From Patescibacteria group bacterium (GTDB lineage: Bacteria; Patescibacteriota; Minisyncoccia; Moranbacterales; UBA2206), in NCBI GenBank assembly GCA_022709735.1, contig JAKLIG010000001.1:20135-84134 (forward strand): 64,000 nucleotides of DNA, given 5' to 3'. Below the pieces are notes generated by a model, which worked only from the letters and a program-made list of their open reading frames with translations, made no database searches and was not told the origin of the DNA. Positions 9,943 to 52,456 of the stretch are shown in pieces; position 1 is the stretch's first letter, and every line of letters starts with the position of its first letter. Made by a program: the position numbers and the translations under genes.

Positions 9943-11154
9943 ATGAAATTTAATTTTAAAGCCAAAACGCCTTCGGGCGAATATAAAGAGGGAACTATCA
10001 ATGCTTCTACCAAAGAATTAGCAGTGACAATTCTCCAAAAAAATAATTTATTGCCAGTGAGTGTGCAAGTGGAAGAGCAAGAAAACGATTTTTCCAAAAT
10101 ATTTTTCAAATATTATGACCGAGTAACGGAAAAAGAACTGGTAATTTTTTTCCGACAATTAGCTATCCTCATCGAAGCAAGAGTGCCGATTGTGGTTTCT
10201 CTCTCGGCTATTCTTGAGCAGACTGCTAGTAAATATTTTATAAAAATTATCAGAGAAATGGTAAATGATATTGAAGATGGAATGTCATTTTCTGCTTCAA
10301 TGGAAAAACACAAGGATGTTTTTTCCAATCTCTCTATAAATATAGTTCGTGCCGGAGAAGCTTCGGGAAATCTCAAAAAATCAATTGACTATGTAGCAGA
10401 AAACATTGAAAGAAATTATAATTTAACAAAAAGAGTTCAATCGGCTCTCATTTATCCCGGGTTAGTTTTGCTAGTATTTTTTATAATCGGATTTTTAGTG
10501 ATTTCTTTTGTTCTCCCGAATCTAACGGCGATTATAAAAGAATTAAATGCTGATATCCCATGGTATACGAAAAGCGTTATTGTTGTCGGCGATTTTATGA
10601 AAGTTTATTGGTGGGCGGTGGCTACTATCATAATCGCTTTTGTTGGCGCCATTATGTATTATTTGAATACCGAGGATGGCCGAAAAGAATGGGATCAGAT
10701 AAAAATAAAATTGCCCATTGTCGGACCAATTTTCCGCTATGTCTACATCACCCGTTTTGCGGAAAATCTTGGCGTTCTTCTTTCTGGCGGAATCCCGATA
10801 ATTCGAGCGATTACTATTGTGAGCTCGGTGATAAACAATATTGTTTTTGAGAAAATTTTTCTTGAAGCCGCTGAAGAAGTAAAAAGAGGAGGGAATATGA
10901 GCACAGTGCTTGGAAGAAGTTCTGATATTCCGCCAATGGTAACGCATATGGTGAGAATCGGAGAAGAATCCGGGCAGATTGATTCAGTGCTTGGGCACAT
11001 TGCAAAATTTTATGATCAAGAAACAGAGATGATGGCGAAAAATCTTTCCACGCTTCTTGAGCCGGTGCTGATGATTTTCATTGGAATCGCGGTCGGTTTT
11101 ATGGCTTTTGCAATCCTAATGCCGATCTACAATATCGCAGGACAGATAAAATAG
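9943..11154 (+). CDS. pilC: Type IV pilus inner-membrane platform protein PilC (two T2SSF domains)
   Basis: 403 aa, duplicated GspF domains, 3-4 TM, typical position after pilB/pilT. Confidence 0.9.
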   Translation: MKFNFKAKTPSGEYKEGTINASTKELAVTILQKNNLLPVSVQVEEQENDFSKIFFKYYDRVTEKELVIFFRQLAILIEARVPIVVSLSAILEQTASKYFIKIIREMVNDIEDGMSFSASMEKHKDVFSNLSINIVRAGEASGNLKKSIDYVAENIERNYNLTKRVQSALIYPGLVLLVFFIIGFLVISFVLPNLTAIIKELNADIPWYTKSVIVVGDFMKVYWWAVATIIIAFVGAIMYYLNTEDGRKEWDQIKIKLPIVGPIFRYVYITRFAENLGVLLSGGIPIIRAITIVSSVINNIVFEKIFLEAAEEVKRGGNMSTVLGRSSDIPPMVTHMVRIGEESGQIDSVLGHIAKFYDQETEMMAKNLSTLLEPVLMIFIGIAVGFMAFAILMPIYNIAGQIK

Positions 11155-11155
11155 G

Positions 11156-11212
11156 AAATTTTCAATTTTCAATTCTCAATTTACAATAAATTCTCAATGA
11201 TACAATTCTCAA
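11156..11212. repeat. TTCAAT-type heptamer mini-repeat array (left arm flanking the four-helix-bundle gene)
   Basis: aattttcaattttcaattctcaatttacaat...ttctcaat. Same unit family as at 11558-11632 (inverted), 19105-19225, 52341-52456, 38611-38676, 18346-18436 and 50238-50288. Confidence 0.7.
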
Positions 11213-11553
11213 AGCAATACGATTTAGAAAAAAGAACTGGCGATTTTGGGATAGAAATTATAAAATTCTGCAAAACAGCTCAACAAACAGTTATAACAAA
11301 ACCTATCATAAATCAATTAATCAGATCAGGAACTAGTGTTGGAGCTAATTACTGTGAAGCAAATAACGCTAGTTCTAAAAAAGATTTTAAAAATAAAATT
11401 TTTATCTGTAAAAAGGAATGTCAAGAAACTAAACATTGGTTGCAAATGTCATCAGAATGTTTCCCTGAAAGAAAGCAAGACATAAGAATTCTTTGGAAAG
11501 AATGCCAAGAACTTACGATGATTTTTCAAAAGATAATAAATTCAACGAAATAA
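11197..11553 (+). CDS. Four-helix-bundle protein (family typically encoded in 23S rRNA intervening sequences)
   Basis: 118 aa. Motif SGTSVGANYCEA...KKDF..K..ICKKECQET..WLQ is characteristic of the 23S-IVS four-helix-bundle family. Confidence 0.75.
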   Translation: MIQFSKQYDLEKRTGDFGIEIIKFCKTAQQTVITKPIINQLIRSGTSVGANYCEANNASSKKDFKNKIFICKKECQETKHWLQMSSECFPERKQDIRILWKECQELTMIFQKIINSTK

Positions 11554-11557
11554 TCCA

Positions 11558-11632
11558 GAAATTTTTGAAAATTGAAAATTATTTTATTGGAAATTCATTG
11601 AAAATTGTAAATTGGTGATTGGAAATTTGATC
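11558..11632. repeat. ATTGAAA-type mini-repeat array (right arm, inverted relative to 11156-11212)
   Basis: tttttgaaaattgaaaattatttt...cattgaaaattgtaaattggtgattggaaattt. Confidence 0.7.
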
Positions 11633-11744
11633 CGAGTAATTTGTATTAGTGTTTCGTATTTCGTTAATTTCGTAGTTCGTAAATGATAAAAGGCAGATTT
11701 AAATAGTAAATAAAAATAAAAAACTAGAAAGTCGAGGTGAATTT

Positions 11745-12233
11745 ATGACAAAGAAAAAAACAAAAAAAGCAACTAAGAAGAAAAAAGGCTTTACCCTTAT
11801 CGAACTTTTGATCGTTATCGCCATTATTGGAATTTTAGCATCAATCGTGTTGGTGAGTTTGAATGGCGCAAGAAATAAGGCGAATGCAGCTGCATTTAAG
11901 GCAACCATATCTAGTTTGCAACCAGCTGTTACTTTGTGTTGCGATACATCAACAAATACTCTTAATGATGGAGCCGGTGAAGATGTTTGTAGCTCTACTG
12001 TTGGTGCTTATCTCCCAAGCGCATCGGATTTGAAAGCTGCGACTTCAGTTACTTATGCTCAAGAACATAATTGCTCAACATCTTATCCAGCATTAAGTGT
12101 AACCGTCGCAGGCCATCCGCAAACAGCTTGTAATGCAGAAGTTTGGGTGACACAAACCGGAATTTATAGTGGCGCTGATGGTGCAGATGCAGATACAATT
12201 GGAGATACGCTTGGATTTCCTACGGGATGTTAA
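11745..12233 (+). CDS. Type IV (pseudo)pilin with prepilin N-terminal cleavage/methylation domain, Lys-rich leader
   Basis: Leader MTKKKTKKATKKKKG then the class III signal FTLIELLIVIAIIGILASIVL, with Cys pairs in the C-terminal domain. Confidence 0.8.
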   Translation: MTKKKTKKATKKKKGFTLIELLIVIAIIGILASIVLVSLNGARNKANAAAFKATISSLQPAVTLCCDTSTNTLNDGAGEDVCSSTVGAYLPSASDLKAATSVTYAQEHNCSTSYPALSVTVAGHPQTACNAEVWVTQTGIYSGADGADADTIGDTLGFPTGC

Positions 12234-16693: not shown

Positions 16694-19104
<2,411 letters not shown>

Positions 19105-19107
<3 letters not shown>

Positions 19108-19225
19108 TTTTCAATTTTCAATTTACAATTTTCAATCAATTTTCAATGTTTCAATGAAATAATTTTCAATTGAAAATTGACAATTGGGTATTCATTGTAA
19201 ATCGATTATTGATAATTGAAAAATT
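19105..19225. repeat. Inverted TTCAAT / ATTGAAA mini-repeat hairpin element in the gatC-gatA intergenic region
   Basis: (aattttcaatt)n...ttcaatgaaataattttcaattgaaaattgacaattg: both orientations, forming a long AT-rich hairpin. Confidence 0.7.
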
Positions 19226-22510: not shown

Positions 22511-22657
22511 CCGGATGTGCTTTAAATAGCTAATAATTTCTAATTTTTGAATTTTTAATTTTATAAATAAATCTAAATTCTTAAATTTTTAAACATTAGA
22601 AATTAAAAAATTATTTAGAAATTACAAAATTTAAAAATTATAAAATTTATAAAAACT

Positions 22658-38457: not shown

Positions 38458-41668
<3,211 letters not shown>

Positions 41669-41817
41669 TTATCTCTCTTGATTCAACTGACAACTCATAA
41701 CTGACAACTTGCAACTTAATTGTTGTTTGTTGAAAGTTGAGAGTTGAAAGTTGATATAGTTAGCAGTTAGAAATTACTAAATTAGCATTTTTTAAAGTTA
41801 GTTAAGAGAGCATTATT

Positions 41818-46120: not shown

Positions 46121-46219
46121 TCCCTACAAAATTACAAATAAATACAAAAATACAAAAGTACGGGAAAATAAAATTATCGCGATTTTGTAGTTTTGTAAAA
46201 TTTTGTATTTTTGTAGGGA
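46121..46219. repeat. Approx. 40-bp-arm imperfect inverted repeat built from TACAAAA units in the murA upstream region
   Basis: tccctacaaaattacaaataaatacaaaaatacaaaagtac ... gattttgtagttttgtaaaattttgtatttttgtaggga. Confidence 0.6.
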
Positions 46220-46287
46220 TATTTGATTTTATCGCCAATTTCATATATAGTGAAATAAACTTAACTAAGTAAAATAAGGCTTAAAAT

Positions 46288-47550
46288 ATGGACTATTTTG
46301 AAATAATCGGAGGGAAAAAACTTTCTGGAGTAATTGATGTCAAGGGTTCAAAAAATGCTACCACGCCGATTTTAGCGGCTACAATTCTCACTAAAAAAGA
46401 ATGCATCTTGGACAATCTTCCGCTCATTGAAGATGTTTTTCGAATGATTGAAATTTTGGAAAGCATGGGCGCCAAAATTAAGTGGATTTCCAAAAGAAAA
46501 ATTTCGATCAGAAATGAAAAAATAAATCCAGAGAAAATGGATTTGGAAAAAATAAAAGAACTAAGATCATCCATTTTGCTTTTGGGTTCTTTGTCCGCGA
46601 GATTTGATAACTTCAAACTTTATCATCCGGGAGGATGCGTGATTGGAAAGCGGCCGCTCGGCACTCATTTTGAAGCGATGAGGAATTTGGGAATCGATAT
46701 AAAACATAATAATAAATTTTATAATATCAACGCGAAAAAGAGAAAGGCCGGCAAAGTTGTGCTTCGGGAACTTTCAGTGACCGCCACAGAGAATGCGATG
46801 ATGCTGGCGACCGGAATGCAAGGAAAAACAACAATAAAAATTGCCGCCTGCGAACCTCACGTTTCCGATCTTGGAAATTTTCTAGTTTCTCTTGGTGCTA
46901 AAATAAAGGGAATTGGAACGCATACATTGGAAATAACCGGTTCAAAAAATTTACATGGCGCGCGTCATAAAATTATTCCTGATGCCAACGAAGCGGCGAC
47001 ATTTCTTATCATGGCCGTGGCAACTGGAAGTCCAATTATAATAAATAATGTTTGCGAAGATCATTTGGATTTAGTTTTGGAAAAACTTCGAGAATTCGGA
47101 GCAGATTTTAAAATTTCAAAAAATTCCATCGAAGTTATTCCGGCGAAAAAATTAGTTGCAGTTTCCAAGATTGACACGCGAACTTATCCTGGAGTGCCGT
47201 CAGATGTGCAGGCGCCATTTGGAGTTTTGGCCACGCAAGCGCAAGGCGAAACATTAATTTTTGATACTATTTTTGAAGGCCGGTTTAATTATATCGGCGA
47301 GCTTCAAAAAATGGGAGCCAAGGCGGAAATATTAGATCCGCATAGAGTGCTTATTAAAGGGCCGGCAAAATTAAAAGGCAAAACCATAACAAGTTTTGAC
47401 CTTCGCGCCGGCGCCACGCTGATTATCGCCGCGCTTTTAGCTTCTGGAAAAACTAGTATAGATAATATTTATCAAGTTGACAGGGGATATGAAAAAATCG
47501 AAGAAAGACTTGAGAAGTTAGGAGCGGATATAAAAAGAATTAAGAAGTAG
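46288..47550 (+). CDS. murA: UDP-N-acetylglucosamine 1-carboxyvinyltransferase MurA
   Basis: 420 aa, EPT family. Active-site Cys context LYHPGGCVIGKRPL and KLSGVIDVKGSKNA N-terminus. Confidence 0.95.
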   Translation: MDYFEIIGGKKLSGVIDVKGSKNATTPILAATILTKKECILDNLPLIEDVFRMIEILESMGAKIKWISKRKISIRNEKINPEKMDLEKIKELRSSILLLGSLSARFDNFKLYHPGGCVIGKRPLGTHFEAMRNLGIDIKHNNKFYNINAKKRKAGKVVLRELSVTATENAMMLATGMQGKTTIKIAACEPHVSDLGNFLVSLGAKIKGIGTHTLEITGSKNLHGARHKIIPDANEAATFLIMAVATGSPIIINNVCEDHLDLVLEKLREFGADFKISKNSIEVIPAKKLVAVSKIDTRTYPGVPSDVQAPFGVLATQAQGETLIFDTIFEGRFNYIGELQKMGAKAEILDPHRVLIKGPAKLKGKTITSFDLRAGATLIIAALLASGKTSIDNIYQVDRGYEKIEERLEKLGADIKRIKK

Positions 47551-47744
47551 GAATTAAGAATTAAGAAGTAAGAAGTAAGAAAAATGAAAACTATAAAAAT
47601 TTTTGAAACAAATAAGCCGGATTTTTCCATTGCCTGGTATGATATTTGGATTGGTGTTTTTATAGATCAAGAAAAAAGAAGATTATATATTTGCCCATTG
47701 CCATGTTTGCTTTTTACAATTAGTTTAGATAAAAAATAATTTAT

Positions 47745-49504: not shown

Positions 49505-50632
49505 ATGAAAATTGGCATTGATGGCTCGCGAGCCTTCCTAAAACAAAGAACGGGCATTGAAGAATATTCCTATCAGGTAATAAAGCACTTGAGAGAAAAA
49601 TTAAAAACATCTCAAGTTGTTTTGTATTTGCGAAAAAATCAGGAAGTTGATTTTGAATTGCCGGAAAACCTGCCTGCCGGCAGGCAGGGTTGGAAAATCA
49701 AAATAATAAAATGGCCGAGATTTTGGACGCAAATCGGACTATCTTTTGAATTATTTTTTCATCCAGTTGATGTGCTATTCATCCCGGCCCATATATTGCC
49801 ACTATATCATCCGAAGAAATCAATAGTTACTATTCATGGCTTGGAATTTGAGGTTACAAAAGAAGCCTATTCTTTTTGGGAGAAAATATATATGCATCTT
49901 TCGATAAAAAAATCCTGTTTTTGGGCGAGCAAAGTTATCGCGGTTTCAAAAAATACAAAAGAAGACCTGATTGAATTTTATAAAGTACCAGAAAAAAAGA
50001 TCGAGGTGATATATGAAGGAGTATCAACTTGTCATGCCGAACTCGTTTCGGCATCTCATAAGATCCTGAAACAAGTTCAGGATGACAATGCCAAATACCT
50101 ATTATTTATTGGTCGATTAGAAAAACGAAAAAATGTTGAAGGCATAATTGAAGCATATAAAATTTTAAAAGAAAAATATAATATACCTCACAGTTTAGTA
50201 TTGGTTGGTTCGCCTGGATATGGATATGAAAGTATAAAATTGAAAATTGAGAATTGTTTGAAAATTGAAAATTGTAAATTGAAAATTATAGAGCTTGGTT
50301 ATATTGAAGAAGCAGTCAAGTGGCAATTATTGCATGATGCTGATGTATTCTTATTCCCATCATTCTATGAAGGTTTTGGTTTGCCGATTTTGGAAGCGCA
50401 AGTGCAAGGTGTTCCGGTTGTCACTTCCAATGTTTCTTCGCTTCCGGAAATCGGCGGAGACAGCGTGGCCTACTGCACACCCGGAGAACCAATAAGTATC
50501 GCTGATTCGACCTATAAGATTTTAAGCGACGAAAATTTTAGAAATGGTATAATAAAAAAGGGTTATGAAAATGTAAAAAAATTCAGTTGGGATAAGTGTG
50601 CGGAAGAAATCGCTAAATTATTAATAAATTGA
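49505..50632 (+). CDS. Glycosyltransferase family 4 (GT1-fold, RfaG-like) with two in-frame repeat-derived insertions
   Basis: C-terminal GT4 block FLFPSFYEGFGLPILEAQVQGVPVVTS. Contains the 20-bp palindrome (49669-49688, encodes LPAGRQG) and a TTGAAAATTG repeat stretch (50238-50288, encodes KLKIENCLKIENCKLKI). Confidence 0.85.
   Translation: MKIGIDGSRAFLKQRTGIEEYSYQVIKHLREKLKTSQVVLYLRKNQEVDFELPENLPAGRQGWKIKIIKWPRFWTQIGLSFELFFHPVDVLFIPAHILPLYHPKKSIVTIHGLEFEVTKEAYSFWEKIYMHLSIKKSCFWASKVIAVSKNTKEDLIEFYKVPEKKIEVIYEGVSTCHAELVSASHKILKQVQDDNAKYLLFIGRLEKRKNVEGIIEAYKILKEKYNIPHSLVLVGSPGYGYESIKLKIENCLKIENCKLKIIELGYIEEAVKWQLLHDADVFLFPSFYEGFGLPILEAQVQGVPVVTSNVSSLPEIGGDSVAYCTPGEPISIADSTYKILSDENFRNGIIKKGYENVKKFSWDKCAEEIAKLLIN
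49669..49688. repeat. Perfect 20-bp palindrome cctgcctgccggcaggcagg (copy 3), in-frame within the GT4 CDS
   Basis: Identical to 21325-21344. Confidence 0.85.
50238..50288. repeat. ATTGAAA mini-repeat stretch in-frame within the GT4 CDS
   Basis: ttgaaaattgagaattgtttgaaaattgaaaattgtaaattgaaaatt. Confidence 0.65.
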
Positions 50633-51226: not shown

Positions 51227-52351
51227 ATGTTGAAAGATGATATAAAAATAGCTCTTGTGCATGATTTTTTGAACCAATATGGCGGGGCGGAAAAGGTGTT
51301 GGAAGTGCTTGCAGAAATGTTTCCGGAAGCACCTATTTATACGCTTCTTTATGATAGAGAAAAAATGAGGGAGAAGTTTAAAGGGAAAGAAATCAGAACT
51401 TCATTTTTGCAAAGACTGCCAAGATTTTTGAGAAAAAGGTATAAATATTTTTTGCCGTTTTTGCCGACTGCACCGGAATCTTTTGATCTTCGCGATTTTG
51501 ATTTGGTTATTTCTTCTTCCGGCGCTTGGTCAAAAGGAATTGTGACAAGACTTGATACTATCCATATCGCTTATATTCACAGCCCAATGCGATTTGTTTG
51601 GGATTATAATGAAAAATATTTGCGCGATGAGAGGAAAGAAAAATTTGGATTTCTAATTCGGCCAGTGCTTAGTTATTTTCGCCTTTGGGATAAATTGGCT
51701 TCTGATCGGCCGGATTATCTAATTGCGAATTCGAAATATACACAAAGCCGGATTAAAAAATATTATAGAAGAGAGAGCGAAGTTATTTATCCGCCGGTAA
51801 ATCAGGAATCAGGAATCATGAATCATGAATCAGGAAATGATAAAAAATACTTTTTAATTGTCTCAAGACTTTCTGCTTATAAAAAAATAGACAAGGCGAT
51901 TGAAGCGTTCAATAAATTAGAATTGCCGTTGGTAATTGTCGGCACTGGTAAAGAAGAAAAAAGACTCAAAAAAATCGCTGGGAAAACAATTGAATTTTTA
52001 GGCTATCAAAAAGAAGAAGATTTGCCGGAAATTTATAAAAACGCTCGGGCTTTTATTTTCCCCGGCGTAGATGATTTTGGAATTGCGCCAGTTGAAGCGA
52101 TGATGCATGGAATTCCAGTCATTGCGATAAAAGATGGGGGAGCGGTGGAAATTGTTGAAGAAAATAGAACCGGAGAATTTTTTGAGAGCGCAATGCCCGA
52201 AGTTATTGCAGATGCGGTTCGAAGATTTTGCGAGAATGAAAAAAAATATGAAAGGGAATATATAATTAAAAGTGTTGAGCGGTTTGGAAAGGAAAGATTT
52301 ATTAGAGAGTTCGAAGATTATATTAAAAAGGTTATGTATAATTTTCAATAA
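51227..52351 (+). CDS. Glycosyltransferase family 4
   Basis: GT4 C-terminal block FIFPGVDDFGIAPVEAMMHGIPVIA. In-frame tandem gaatca[gt] repeats at 51800-51840 (NQESGIMNHESGN). Confidence 0.85.
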   Translation: MLKDDIKIALVHDFLNQYGGAEKVLEVLAEMFPEAPIYTLLYDREKMREKFKGKEIRTSFLQRLPRFLRKRYKYFLPFLPTAPESFDLRDFDLVISSSGAWSKGIVTRLDTIHIAYIHSPMRFVWDYNEKYLRDERKEKFGFLIRPVLSYFRLWDKLASDRPDYLIANSKYTQSRIKKYYRRESEVIYPPVNQESGIMNHESGNDKKYFLIVSRLSAYKKIDKAIEAFNKLELPLVIVGTGKEEKRLKKIAGKTIEFLGYQKEEDLPEIYKNARAFIFPGVDDFGIAPVEAMMHGIPVIAIKDGGAVEIVEENRTGEFFESAMPEVIADAVRRFCENEKKYEREYIIKSVERFGKERFIREFEDYIKKVMYNFQ

Positions 52352-52456
52352 TCAATGATCAATTTTCAATGAATTTTCAATTATATAATTTTCAAATTAA
52401 AAAATTGAAAATTGTAAATTGATTGTAAATTGAAAATTGTAAATTGAAAATTTAAG
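52341..52456. repeat. Inverted TTCAAT / ATTGAAA mini-repeat hairpin element between GT4 and holB
   Basis: caatgatcaattttcaatgaattttcaatt...aaaaaattgaaaattgtaaattgattgtaaattgaaaattgtaaattgaaaattt. Confidence 0.7.

Follow-up and report, generated by a model that had tools for sequence, protein, structure and literature searches.

How does a gene of a protein family classically found inside 23S rRNA come to lie between two pilus genes, enclosed by inverted repeats? The question is raised by positions 11156-11632 of a 64,000-nt stretch (the window; all positions are counted from its first letter) of a metagenome contig from Moranbacteria (Patescibacteria, or candidate phyla radiation, CPR; G+C 36.5 %), where the gene of a 118-aa four-helix-bundle (4HB) protein is flanked by two arms of tandem heptamers. 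The evidence presented here is computational throughout, and all sequences compared from Patescibacteria were metagenome-assembled genomes (MAGs) or metagenome assemblies. The segment is very likely a discrete, inserted and selfish module of the type of the intervening sequences (IVSs) of 23S rRNA. A fuller reading, considered probable, is that it represents one copy of a compact (~480 bp) insertable cassette which is co-transcribed with its host operon and whose arms may be recognised by its own product. Its anatomy matches that of 23S IVSs bearing an open reading frame (ORF), but it is located in an mRNA operon.

An earlier note, made from the sequence alone, had assigned the gene (11197-11553, forward strand) to the family known from 23S IVSs, and profile searches agreed. 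The product matched Pfam family PF05635 (23S_rRNA_IVP; E 4e-15, 56.4 bits against a cut-off of 33.8) and NCBIfam family TIGR02436 ('four helix bundle protein'; E 1.5e-22, 79.9 bits against a cut-off of 24). Members of this family are also annotated, by a misnomer, as 'S23 ribosomal protein'. Residues Q40, R43, S47, N51 and E54 were invariant in both 4HB subfamilies aligned, and the protein conforms to the family signature xxRxxxSxxxNxxE (PMC3936711). Its AlphaFold2 (AF2) monomer model displayed four helices (pLDDT 93) with Foldseek TM-scores of 0.79-0.86 to 2RLD, ~0.8 to 2GSC and 0.74-0.81 to Avd 4DWL. Its PDB relatives, which form the S23/Avd family, consist of five chains each; the model places the window protein in this pentamer-forming fold family, its own pentamer being assumed from these relatives. 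Cassette 4HB genes displayed dN/dS ratios of 0.05-0.15 and, judged from these substitution rates, the gene is under strong purifying selection. The window protein matched neither PADLOC nor PHROG entries, and its membership in a defence system was discarded as PADLOC returned no match. It likewise failed to match PF22296 (bAvd) and the Avd PHROG, while the canonical CPR 4HB subfamily weakly matched PF22296 and the PHROG 'Avd protein of DGR' (DGR, diversity-generating retroelement). Carriage of the cassette by phages was also rejected: no relatives were found in IMG/VR and INPHARED gave just two matches of 31-34 % identity.

The left arm (11156-11200, forward strand; repeat search and Tandem Repeats Finder, TRF) is composed of the units AATTTTC, AATTTTC, AATTCTC, AATTTAC, AATA, AATTCTC and AATG, that is, of five to six heptamers with one 4-nt phase shift. 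The start codon of the 4HB gene lies inside the last unit and is not preceded by a Shine-Dalgarno sequence. The right arm (11558-11632, forward strand; repeat search, TRF and folding) is the reverse-complement array, with heptamers of the (GAAAATT) type. The inverted arrays described in the earlier note were therefore present on both sides, but with a unit of 7 nt instead of 11 nt; TRF returned a period of 7 on either side of the gene. With up to one mismatch, AATTTTCAATT occurred 60 times in the window against 25.0±4.8 times in shuffled sequences, none of 100 shuffles reaching 60. The arms had been expected to pair into a long stem, and such a stem was predicted. The segments 11156-11212 and 11572-11628 (57 nt) were 75 % complementary, with a perfect core of 16/16 at 11157-11172 and 11565-11580. 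The predicted arm-arm RNA duplex reached -27.5 kcal/mol, against -13.7±3.1 for shuffles (z -4.5); the joined arms folded to -36 kcal/mol with 52 pairs, and the outer stem was kept in both the minimum free energy and the centroid folds of 11140-11650 (z -2.24). Rfam gave no match at E <= 1 over the cassette. A role of the arms as promoter or terminator was rejected, the left arm displaying one weak -35/-10-like match (9/12) and the terminator search being negative. A promoter for a leaderless mRNA was also considered, and was dropped because the distance between the TACAAT unit and the ATG differs among other cassettes.

The gene is located, as had been noted, between pilC (T2SSF; 9943-11154, forward strand) and a type IV pilin gene (N_methyl; 11745-12233, forward strand). 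The pilC stop codon (11152-11154) ends 1 nt before the left arm, and the pilin gene has its own GAGGTG ribosome-binding site. A GGCAGATTTAAATAG box (11692-11706, forward strand) upstream of the pilin gene was kept in relatives with or without the cassette; because the insertion is upstream of this box, the pilin leader is intact. The cassette has been inserted between the pilC stop codon, which it directly follows, and the leader of the pilin gene. This was revealed by pilC loci fetched from metagenomes (L089-L124; 124 related loci were gathered in total), in which the order pilC to pilin was conserved with a spacer of usually 50-200 nt. The nearest pilC relative (L089, PilC 84 % identical) displayed a plain spacer of ~90 nt with neither cassette nor hairpin, and this spacer keeps the GGCAGATTTAA-ATA box, as at window positions 11692-11706. 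In L090 (PilC 78 %), AATTTTC arms as in the window enclosed a gene for a 276-aa KilA-N protein instead. L091 (PilC 77 %) harbored a 4HB gene 61 % identical to that of the window between AATTTTA-type arms, while in L093, L094 and L096 (PilC 70-72 %), arms of (GAAGAAT)n and (ATTCTTC)n enclosed a canonical 23S_rRNA_IVP gene (E 8.6e-37). At this site, L095 displayed a (GAACAAT)n tract and a gene remnant, and the cassette was absent from L089, L092 and most of L089-L124.

The comparison with relatives for which the earlier note had called thus revealed one empty site and others occupied by different cargo or different heptamers. The 4HB gene is not a conserved pilus-locus gene devoid of repeats; its closest homolog was found in a conjugation-like cluster. 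Vertical co-inheritance with pilC was rejected on the basis of these empty or differently filled sites and of the lack of correlation between 4HB and PilC identities (rho 0.03; p 0.88 for the eight pilC-linked cassettes). Presence and absence, replacement at one site and incongruence with host genes all imply mobility. The L089 spacer sequence AAAATTAATTTG was examined as an excision footprint; it displayed no match to fused arm ends and was left uninterpreted. The KilA-N gene of L090 (4281-5111) matched the PADLOC phage-defence candidate PDC-S22 (E 1.7e-121). Directly right of the window cassette, a one-armed (GTATTTC)-type tract with a 7/16-nt period (11652-11684) may be the remnant of an earlier cassette with another unit family at the same site.

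The window cassette was not isolated. The best 80 of 296 protein matches to the window 4HB protein, together with extra copies on those loci, yielded ~90 cassettes from many patescibacterial classes, nearly all of which displayed inverted AATTTNC arrays around the 4HB gene. Arm lengths peaked at 40 and 47 nt, corresponding to five to six heptamers and a single 4-nt phase shift beside the innermost unit, and the start codon was embedded as AATG in the last unit in 87 out of 91 homologous cassettes. The commonest units were AATTTTC, AATTTAC, AATTTTT, AATTTTG and AATTTTA; AATTTCC was also in use. Arm duplexes were predicted with a mean z of -4.2 (z < -2 in 71 % of the cassettes). Heptamers GTATTAT, GAATTAT and AGAATTC, with embedded ATG, were encountered in the canonical CPR subfamily and ACAAGAT, CAAATNN and AAAGAAC in distant paralogs, and two arm types were found on a single contig (L021).

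Host contexts were diverse. The closest protein homolog (91 % aa identity; L009, from another Moranbacteria MAG), which lies in the conjugation-like cluster mentioned above, had arms as in the window. Window-type arms were also found around homologs that lie between genes for a histidine kinase and a CBS protein, or after a prepilin peptidase gene. Contexts unrelated to pili, in which most cassettes lie, included a cluster resembling type IV secretion systems, kinase-CBS, thyA-folA and aspS, as well as cas operons in cyanobacteria. Pilus operons appear enriched: cassettes were found directly after pilC in L011, L013, L033, L037, L041, L066 and L091, and beside pilin or prepilin peptidase genes in L008 and L024. 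The pilus operon of L125 displayed two different cassettes (291-677 and 2489-2830), before pilB and between pilB and pilC, with units AATTTTC and AGAATTC. Cassettes were essentially always oriented in the direction of transcription of their host operon: relative to the cassette, the orientations of the two neighbours were (+,+) in 63 cases, (+,-) in 10, (-,+) in five and (-,-) in none. The stop codon of the upstream ORF was located at -2 to +6 nt from the start of the arm in 36 out of 58 cases. Several MAGs (among them those of L014, L016, L017 and L025) are labelled 'uncultured Gammaproteobacteria' or 'Bdellovibrionales' while carrying Patescibacteria-like AT-rich cassettes and pilus genes; these labels look unreliable.

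The arms belong to the cassette rather than to its surroundings. Left and right arms of the same cassette scored 21.7 against each other, compared with 16.96±0.41 for permuted partners (0/2000) and 7.3 for the outer flanks. Protein similarity was correlated with arm similarity (rho 0.41 for left and 0.30 for right arms; Mantel 0/500), and the heptamer motif was kept even where dS was ~1 or saturated. Such comparisons indicate that arms and gene evolve as a single unit, independently of neighbouring genes. Across 92 cassettes, G·U mismatches in the arms were not in excess over A·C mismatches (118 versus 129, p 0.52); RNA pairing alone therefore does not explain arm conservation, and selection on the arms as sense-strand RNA was rejected. 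From these alignments, the conserved feature is inferred to be a primary-sequence heptamer of fixed number and phase which differs among 4HB subfamilies. Because number and phase are fixed and units differ by subfamily, the heptamers would be specific recognition sites, and the data argue for heptamer recognition as more likely than pairing alone. By analogy with Avd, which binds an RNA stem-loop (bioRxiv 10.1101/2023.10.23.563531), the obvious candidate and most likely reader would be the 4HB product of the cassette itself. That this protein actually binds its own arms is advanced tentatively, and the agreement between ~five heptamers per arm and five subunits, hence one subunit per heptamer, is suggestive but speculative.

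A link between the cassette and rRNA IVS biology had also been proposed, and it was borne out in a different phylum. PLSDB plasmids were searched with the canonical 4HB subfamily, and the match in Azospirillum lipoferum (AZO_p2) was located inside a 23S rRNA (Rfam, 883 bits), as an insertion in the helix-45 loop with a PF05635-type ORF. Its arms read CAGAGGA, CGGATGA, CAGAGGA, CGGAGGA on one side and CCGTCCT, CTGTCTT, CTGTCAT, CCGTCTT on the other, with lag-7 identities of 0.68 and 0.71 compared with a null mean of 0.38. As these inverted arms are 7-periodic, a bona fide 23S IVS shares the heptamer-armed design. A gene of the family was thus found inside a 23S IVS in Azospirillum. No 23S or 5S sequence was found in the 124 related loci. 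None of the ~90 closest cassettes was located in rRNA, and an rRNA context was therefore rejected for close homologs.

Heptamer-flanked 4HB genes are also present in Cyanobacteria and Bacteroidota. Inverted arrays surrounded the gene in Nostoc punctiforme and Aulosira ((TCAGGAG)n and CTTCTGA), in Riemerella ((GGTTTAA)n and (TAAACCT)n) and in Calothrix brevissima ((GGGTGTA)n and (CTACACC)n), while (CTTCTGC/CCTCTGC)n tracts were found beside it in Nostoc 7120 and Stanieria. Several plasmid 4HB genes were located within cas operons, a context noted earlier with no mention of repeats (PMC3936711). In the CPR rRNA insertions described by Tsurumaki et al., 23S_rRNA_IVP ORFs were few, and repeats are not mentioned (PMC11270868).

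Among known systems, the closest counterparts are the ORF-bearing 23S IVSs of Leptospira, Coxiella burnetii (helix 45) and Azospirillum. Size is alike (the cassette being ~480 nt), terminal inverted repeats form a stem and a sense-oriented PF05635 ORF occupies the loop. Occurrence is sporadic, suggesting horizontal spread, short ORF-less versions coexist, and the Azospirillum arms are 7-periodic like those of the window cassette. The Coxiella IVS measures 428-444 nt, ends in a stem of 28 bp, is cut by RNase III and contains an S23p ORF reported as decaying (PMC4990558). In contrast, the cassette ORF is under strong purifying selection, and the arms are imperfect AT-rich heptamer arrays of ~80 % complementarity rather than a near-perfect 28-bp stem. 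The window cassette also lies in an mRNA operon spacer and not in 23S helix 9, 25 or 45, although an ORF-less element of the window does (38611-38676, see below).

Avd of DGRs (PDB 4DWL/8UB7) has the 4HB fold of the same pentamer-forming family and, as the sole member with known activity, binds structured RNA. Unlike Avd, the cassette has no nearby reverse transcriptase (RT), template or variable repeat, its product falls below the PF22296 threshold and it is flanked by heptamer arrays. Correia elements of Neisseria, repetitive extragenic palindromic (REP) sequences and bacterial interspersed mosaic elements (BIMEs), and Rickettsia palindromic elements are dispersed inverted repeats located just past stop codons and co-transcribed with host genes. 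Some of them, the Correia elements, are cut by RNase III, and some, the Rickettsia palindromic elements, are tolerated in frame in ORFs and in RNA genes, which resembles the window tracts in ligA, in a glycosyltransferase gene and in 23S helix 9. The cassette differs from all of these by its arms of tandem heptamers, by a full form carrying its own conserved gene and by the lack of a known transposase or RAYT partner. Finally, the short tandemly repeated repetitive (STRR) sequences of cyanobacteria and the TAACTGA repeats of Beggiatoaceae (PMC4679880) are likewise intergenic tandem heptamers, often abutting start codons without Shine-Dalgarno sequence. STRR-type arrays directly flank 4HB genes on plasmids of Nostoc, Aulosira, Calothrix and Pseudanabaena, and a TAACTGA-type hairpin was found in the 23S-5S spacer of the window; units differ, however, and the published descriptions include neither 4HB genes nor inverted pairing.

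The heptamer repeat is not private to the window cassette but forms a dispersed family, which includes ORF-less hairpins and one-armed tracts in two protein genes. An ORF-less hairpin in the gatC-gatA spacer (19106-19224, forward strand; -31.1 kcal/mol, z -4.3) begins within the gatC stop codon and displays a left arm with the cassette layout, AATG included, with no gene after it. The same arm layout, again with AATG, was found at 52340-52452 (forward strand; -29.2 kcal/mol, z -4.8), where ORF 51227-52351 runs four codons into the hairpin and ends on a TAA supplied by the element. A third ORF-less hairpin (38611-38676, forward strand; -42.5 kcal/mol, z -7.9) is located in the helix-9 loop of the 23S rRNA gene. 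The earlier note had reported this insertion as made of the same unit; the insertion is real, while its unit, AATTTCC, is a one-base variant of AATTTTC also found in cassette arms at other loci. According to Rfam, 84 nt replace five in a 23S hairpin loop at model positions ~130-150, i.e. helix 9; the left arm is (AATTTCC)x4 (TRF x4.3) and the degenerate right arm pairs with it through five G·U pairs. The coexistence of an ORF-bearing cassette with ORF-less hairpins resembles the distinction already known between IVSs that bear an ORF and short ones that do not. The 23S rRNA gene (38465-41678) measures 3214 nt against a model of 2925 positions, with ~210 nt extra outside the helix-9 insertion; TRF detected no further heptamer tract in it.

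The one-armed tracts are translated. A tract of AATTTTC/AATTTCC in one orientation (18345-18425, forward strand), which is not a hairpin itself and contains a nested 21-nt GC hairpin, is in frame in ligA and yields a LigA peptide ending in FPISNF. A GAAAATT tract (50235-50287, forward strand) is in frame in a glycosyltransferase ORF and encodes IKLKIENCLKIENCKLKI. Additional tracts within ORFs or at gene ends were found at 51800-51836, 16983-17029 and 47535-47581, with units AATCAGG, AAGAATA and AAGAAGT. In L008 (10067-12179), ligA was called as a 549-aa ORF and an 82-aa BRCT ORF, split at the linker which bears the heptamer tract in the window ligA; the gap is 7-periodic and assembly frameshifts are possible. 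GC-rich hairpins of ~20 nt (e.g. CCTGCCTCGCTGTCAAGCGGG) were nested in heptamer tracts of the window (18389-18409) and of the flanks of L010, L034, L039, L045, L057 and L090-L092. They recall small dispersed repeats which, as Elhai et al. reportedly described in 2008, insert into Nostoc heptamer repeats. Hairpins with other units were also present. One in the 23S-5S spacer (41684-41754; -31.5 kcal/mol, z -6.1) is composed of (CAACTGA/TAACTGA)n and (GTTGAAA/GTTGAGA)n, TAACTGA being an intergenic heptamer of Beggiatoaceae, cyanobacteria and Bacteroidetes (PMC4679880). Two others are intergenic (46125-46216 and 22534-22654), one with (TACAAAAN)n/(TTTTGTAN)n (z -8.6) and the other of AATTTTT type (z -2.2); within the window, neither is accompanied by a 4HB gene.

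The mechanism proposed for the cassette combines these elements. As read from its sequence, it would have neither a promoter nor a Shine-Dalgarno sequence of its own and would depend on read-through from pilC for its expression. Pairing of the arms in the transcript is predicted to yield a stem like that of an IVS, which RNase III could cut to free the 4HB mRNA without harm to the flanking cistrons, much as an IVS leaves pre-23S rRNA. The encoded homopentamer may then recognise the heptamers, a binding which might act in autoregulation, in protecting the RNA or in spreading the element.

Several observations weigh against an inserted, mobile and RNA-acting cassette. No recombinase or transposase accompanies the cassette, whose sole ORF is the 118-aa 4HB gene. 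No target site duplication was visible at 11152-11156 / 11628-11640, the empty site of L089 being too diverged to define junctions. Among the fetched loci and contigs, to which copy comparisons applied rather than to whole genomes, no near-identical copies were found: the best pair of cassettes was 88 % identical in nucleotides and two copies in one MAG were 87 % identical. Recent transposition was rejected on this ground. The pilC-pilin site was occupied again in lineages with PilC identities of just 31-60 %, and its recurrence could partly stem from old vertical inheritance combined with losses. Selection for an RNA helix is not demonstrated, the G·U test being flat and the arms, in which A·A and U·U mismatches are frequent, being only ~80 % complementary. 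Loci were picked by similarity to the window protein, which biased the sample, and CPR genes are mostly co-directional, yet insufficiently so to explain 63 versus 0. On plasmids, a Pseudanabaena galeata 4HB gene between cas6 and cas4 (pPg_01, 46268-46627; L147) displayed direct instead of inverted arrays ((GCTAAAA)x14 upstream and (GCCAAAA)x9 downstream), and three other examples were without clear 7-periodicity.

The most serious rival explanation is that of a miniature inverted-repeat transposable element (MITE) with passenger cargo. Here the arrays would be terminal inverted repeats (TIRs) for a transposase encoded elsewhere, the 4HB or KilA-N gene a passenger and the ORF-less hairpins the basic mobile form of a non-autonomous DNA transposon. 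TIRs are indeed present, with arms of ~43 nt, ORF-less copies exist, window-type arms enclose KilA-N in L090, the G·U test uncovered no RNA-specific pairing signature, and copies reside inside ORFs and rRNA as do Rickettsia palindromic elements. Neither a cognate transposase, near-identical copies nor a target site duplication was found, however, and the 4HB gene is a near-universal cargo with dN/dS of ~0.05. In 87 out of 91 cassettes the arm includes the start codon of this gene, orientation is strictly sense (63 versus 0), and arm sequence tracks the protein clade, which is unexpected for passenger cargo; this explanation is considered unlikely. It is still less probable that the arrays are a feature of the host genome, such as slippage-prone repeats or terminator- or attenuator-like hairpins, which the 4HB gene sits in or enters without forming one element. 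The association recurs with entirely different units in cyanobacteria and in Azospirillum, which is GC-rich; the arms vary in concert with each other and with the protein, two unit types share one contig, 87/91 cassettes have their ATG embedded in the last unit and the empty site of L089 displays no hairpin. What such a view does account for are the hairpins of the window that have other units and lack a 4HB gene (41684-41754, 46125-46216 and 22534-22654), the one-armed tracts in ORFs and the variable number of units, as slippage would give.

Two further explanations give the protein a host or retroelement function and are both regarded as very improbable. Recurrence in pilus operons (after pilC in seven loci, in L008 and L024 and twice in L125) could designate the gene as a dedicated type IV pilus regulator or accessory factor, the repeats being its operator or RNA sites. 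Yet it is absent from L089, L092 and most of L089-L124, does not co-diverge with PilC, and most cassettes lie in unrelated contexts. Alternatively, the product could be an orphan Avd-type accessory protein acting in trans with a distant RT, the arms being RNA elements bound by RT or Avd. DGRs are common in CPR, the fold is common to Avd (4DWL, 8UB7; TM ~0.75), Avd binds an RNA stem-loop and the canonical CPR subfamily matches PF22296 bAvd and the Avd PHROG. The window protein itself matches neither, though, and no RT domain was found among called genes within ~10 kb on either side; no template/variable repeat pair was seen, and the ~90 cassettes have no conserved RT neighbour.

The reading as a selfish IVS-type cassette has consequences for how IVSs are viewed. 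4HB genes, IVSs and heptamer repeats were already known separately; what is new are IVS-like elements outside rRNA which join them. A literature search, with subscription literature mostly outside its scope, uncovered no paper linking the three or describing repeat-flanked 4HB cassettes or CPR heptamer hairpins. The results suggest that heptamer-armed 4HB cassettes are abundant in Patescibacteria, and that rRNA IVSs are the rRNA-resident minority of a much larger population of such cassettes in ordinary operons. Origin, mobility and function of 23S IVSs and their conserved S23p ORF have been open questions since ~1990, and the cassette family may explain the origin of IVSs. It is also a candidate explanation for intergenic heptamer repeats and offers an annotation rule for thousands of 'four helix bundle protein' genes. 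A bolder generalisation, judged rather unlikely as it stands, is that PF05635 pentamers are sequence-specific, TRAP-like readers of tandem heptamers, with one subunit for each, and form together with inverted arrays a widespread, so far unrecognised class of selfish hairpin cassettes that colonise transcribed operon spacers. If true, this would unite classical 23S IVSs with and without ORF, the 4HB genes of cas operons and at least part of the STRR-like intergenic heptamers of cyanobacteria and Bacteroidota.

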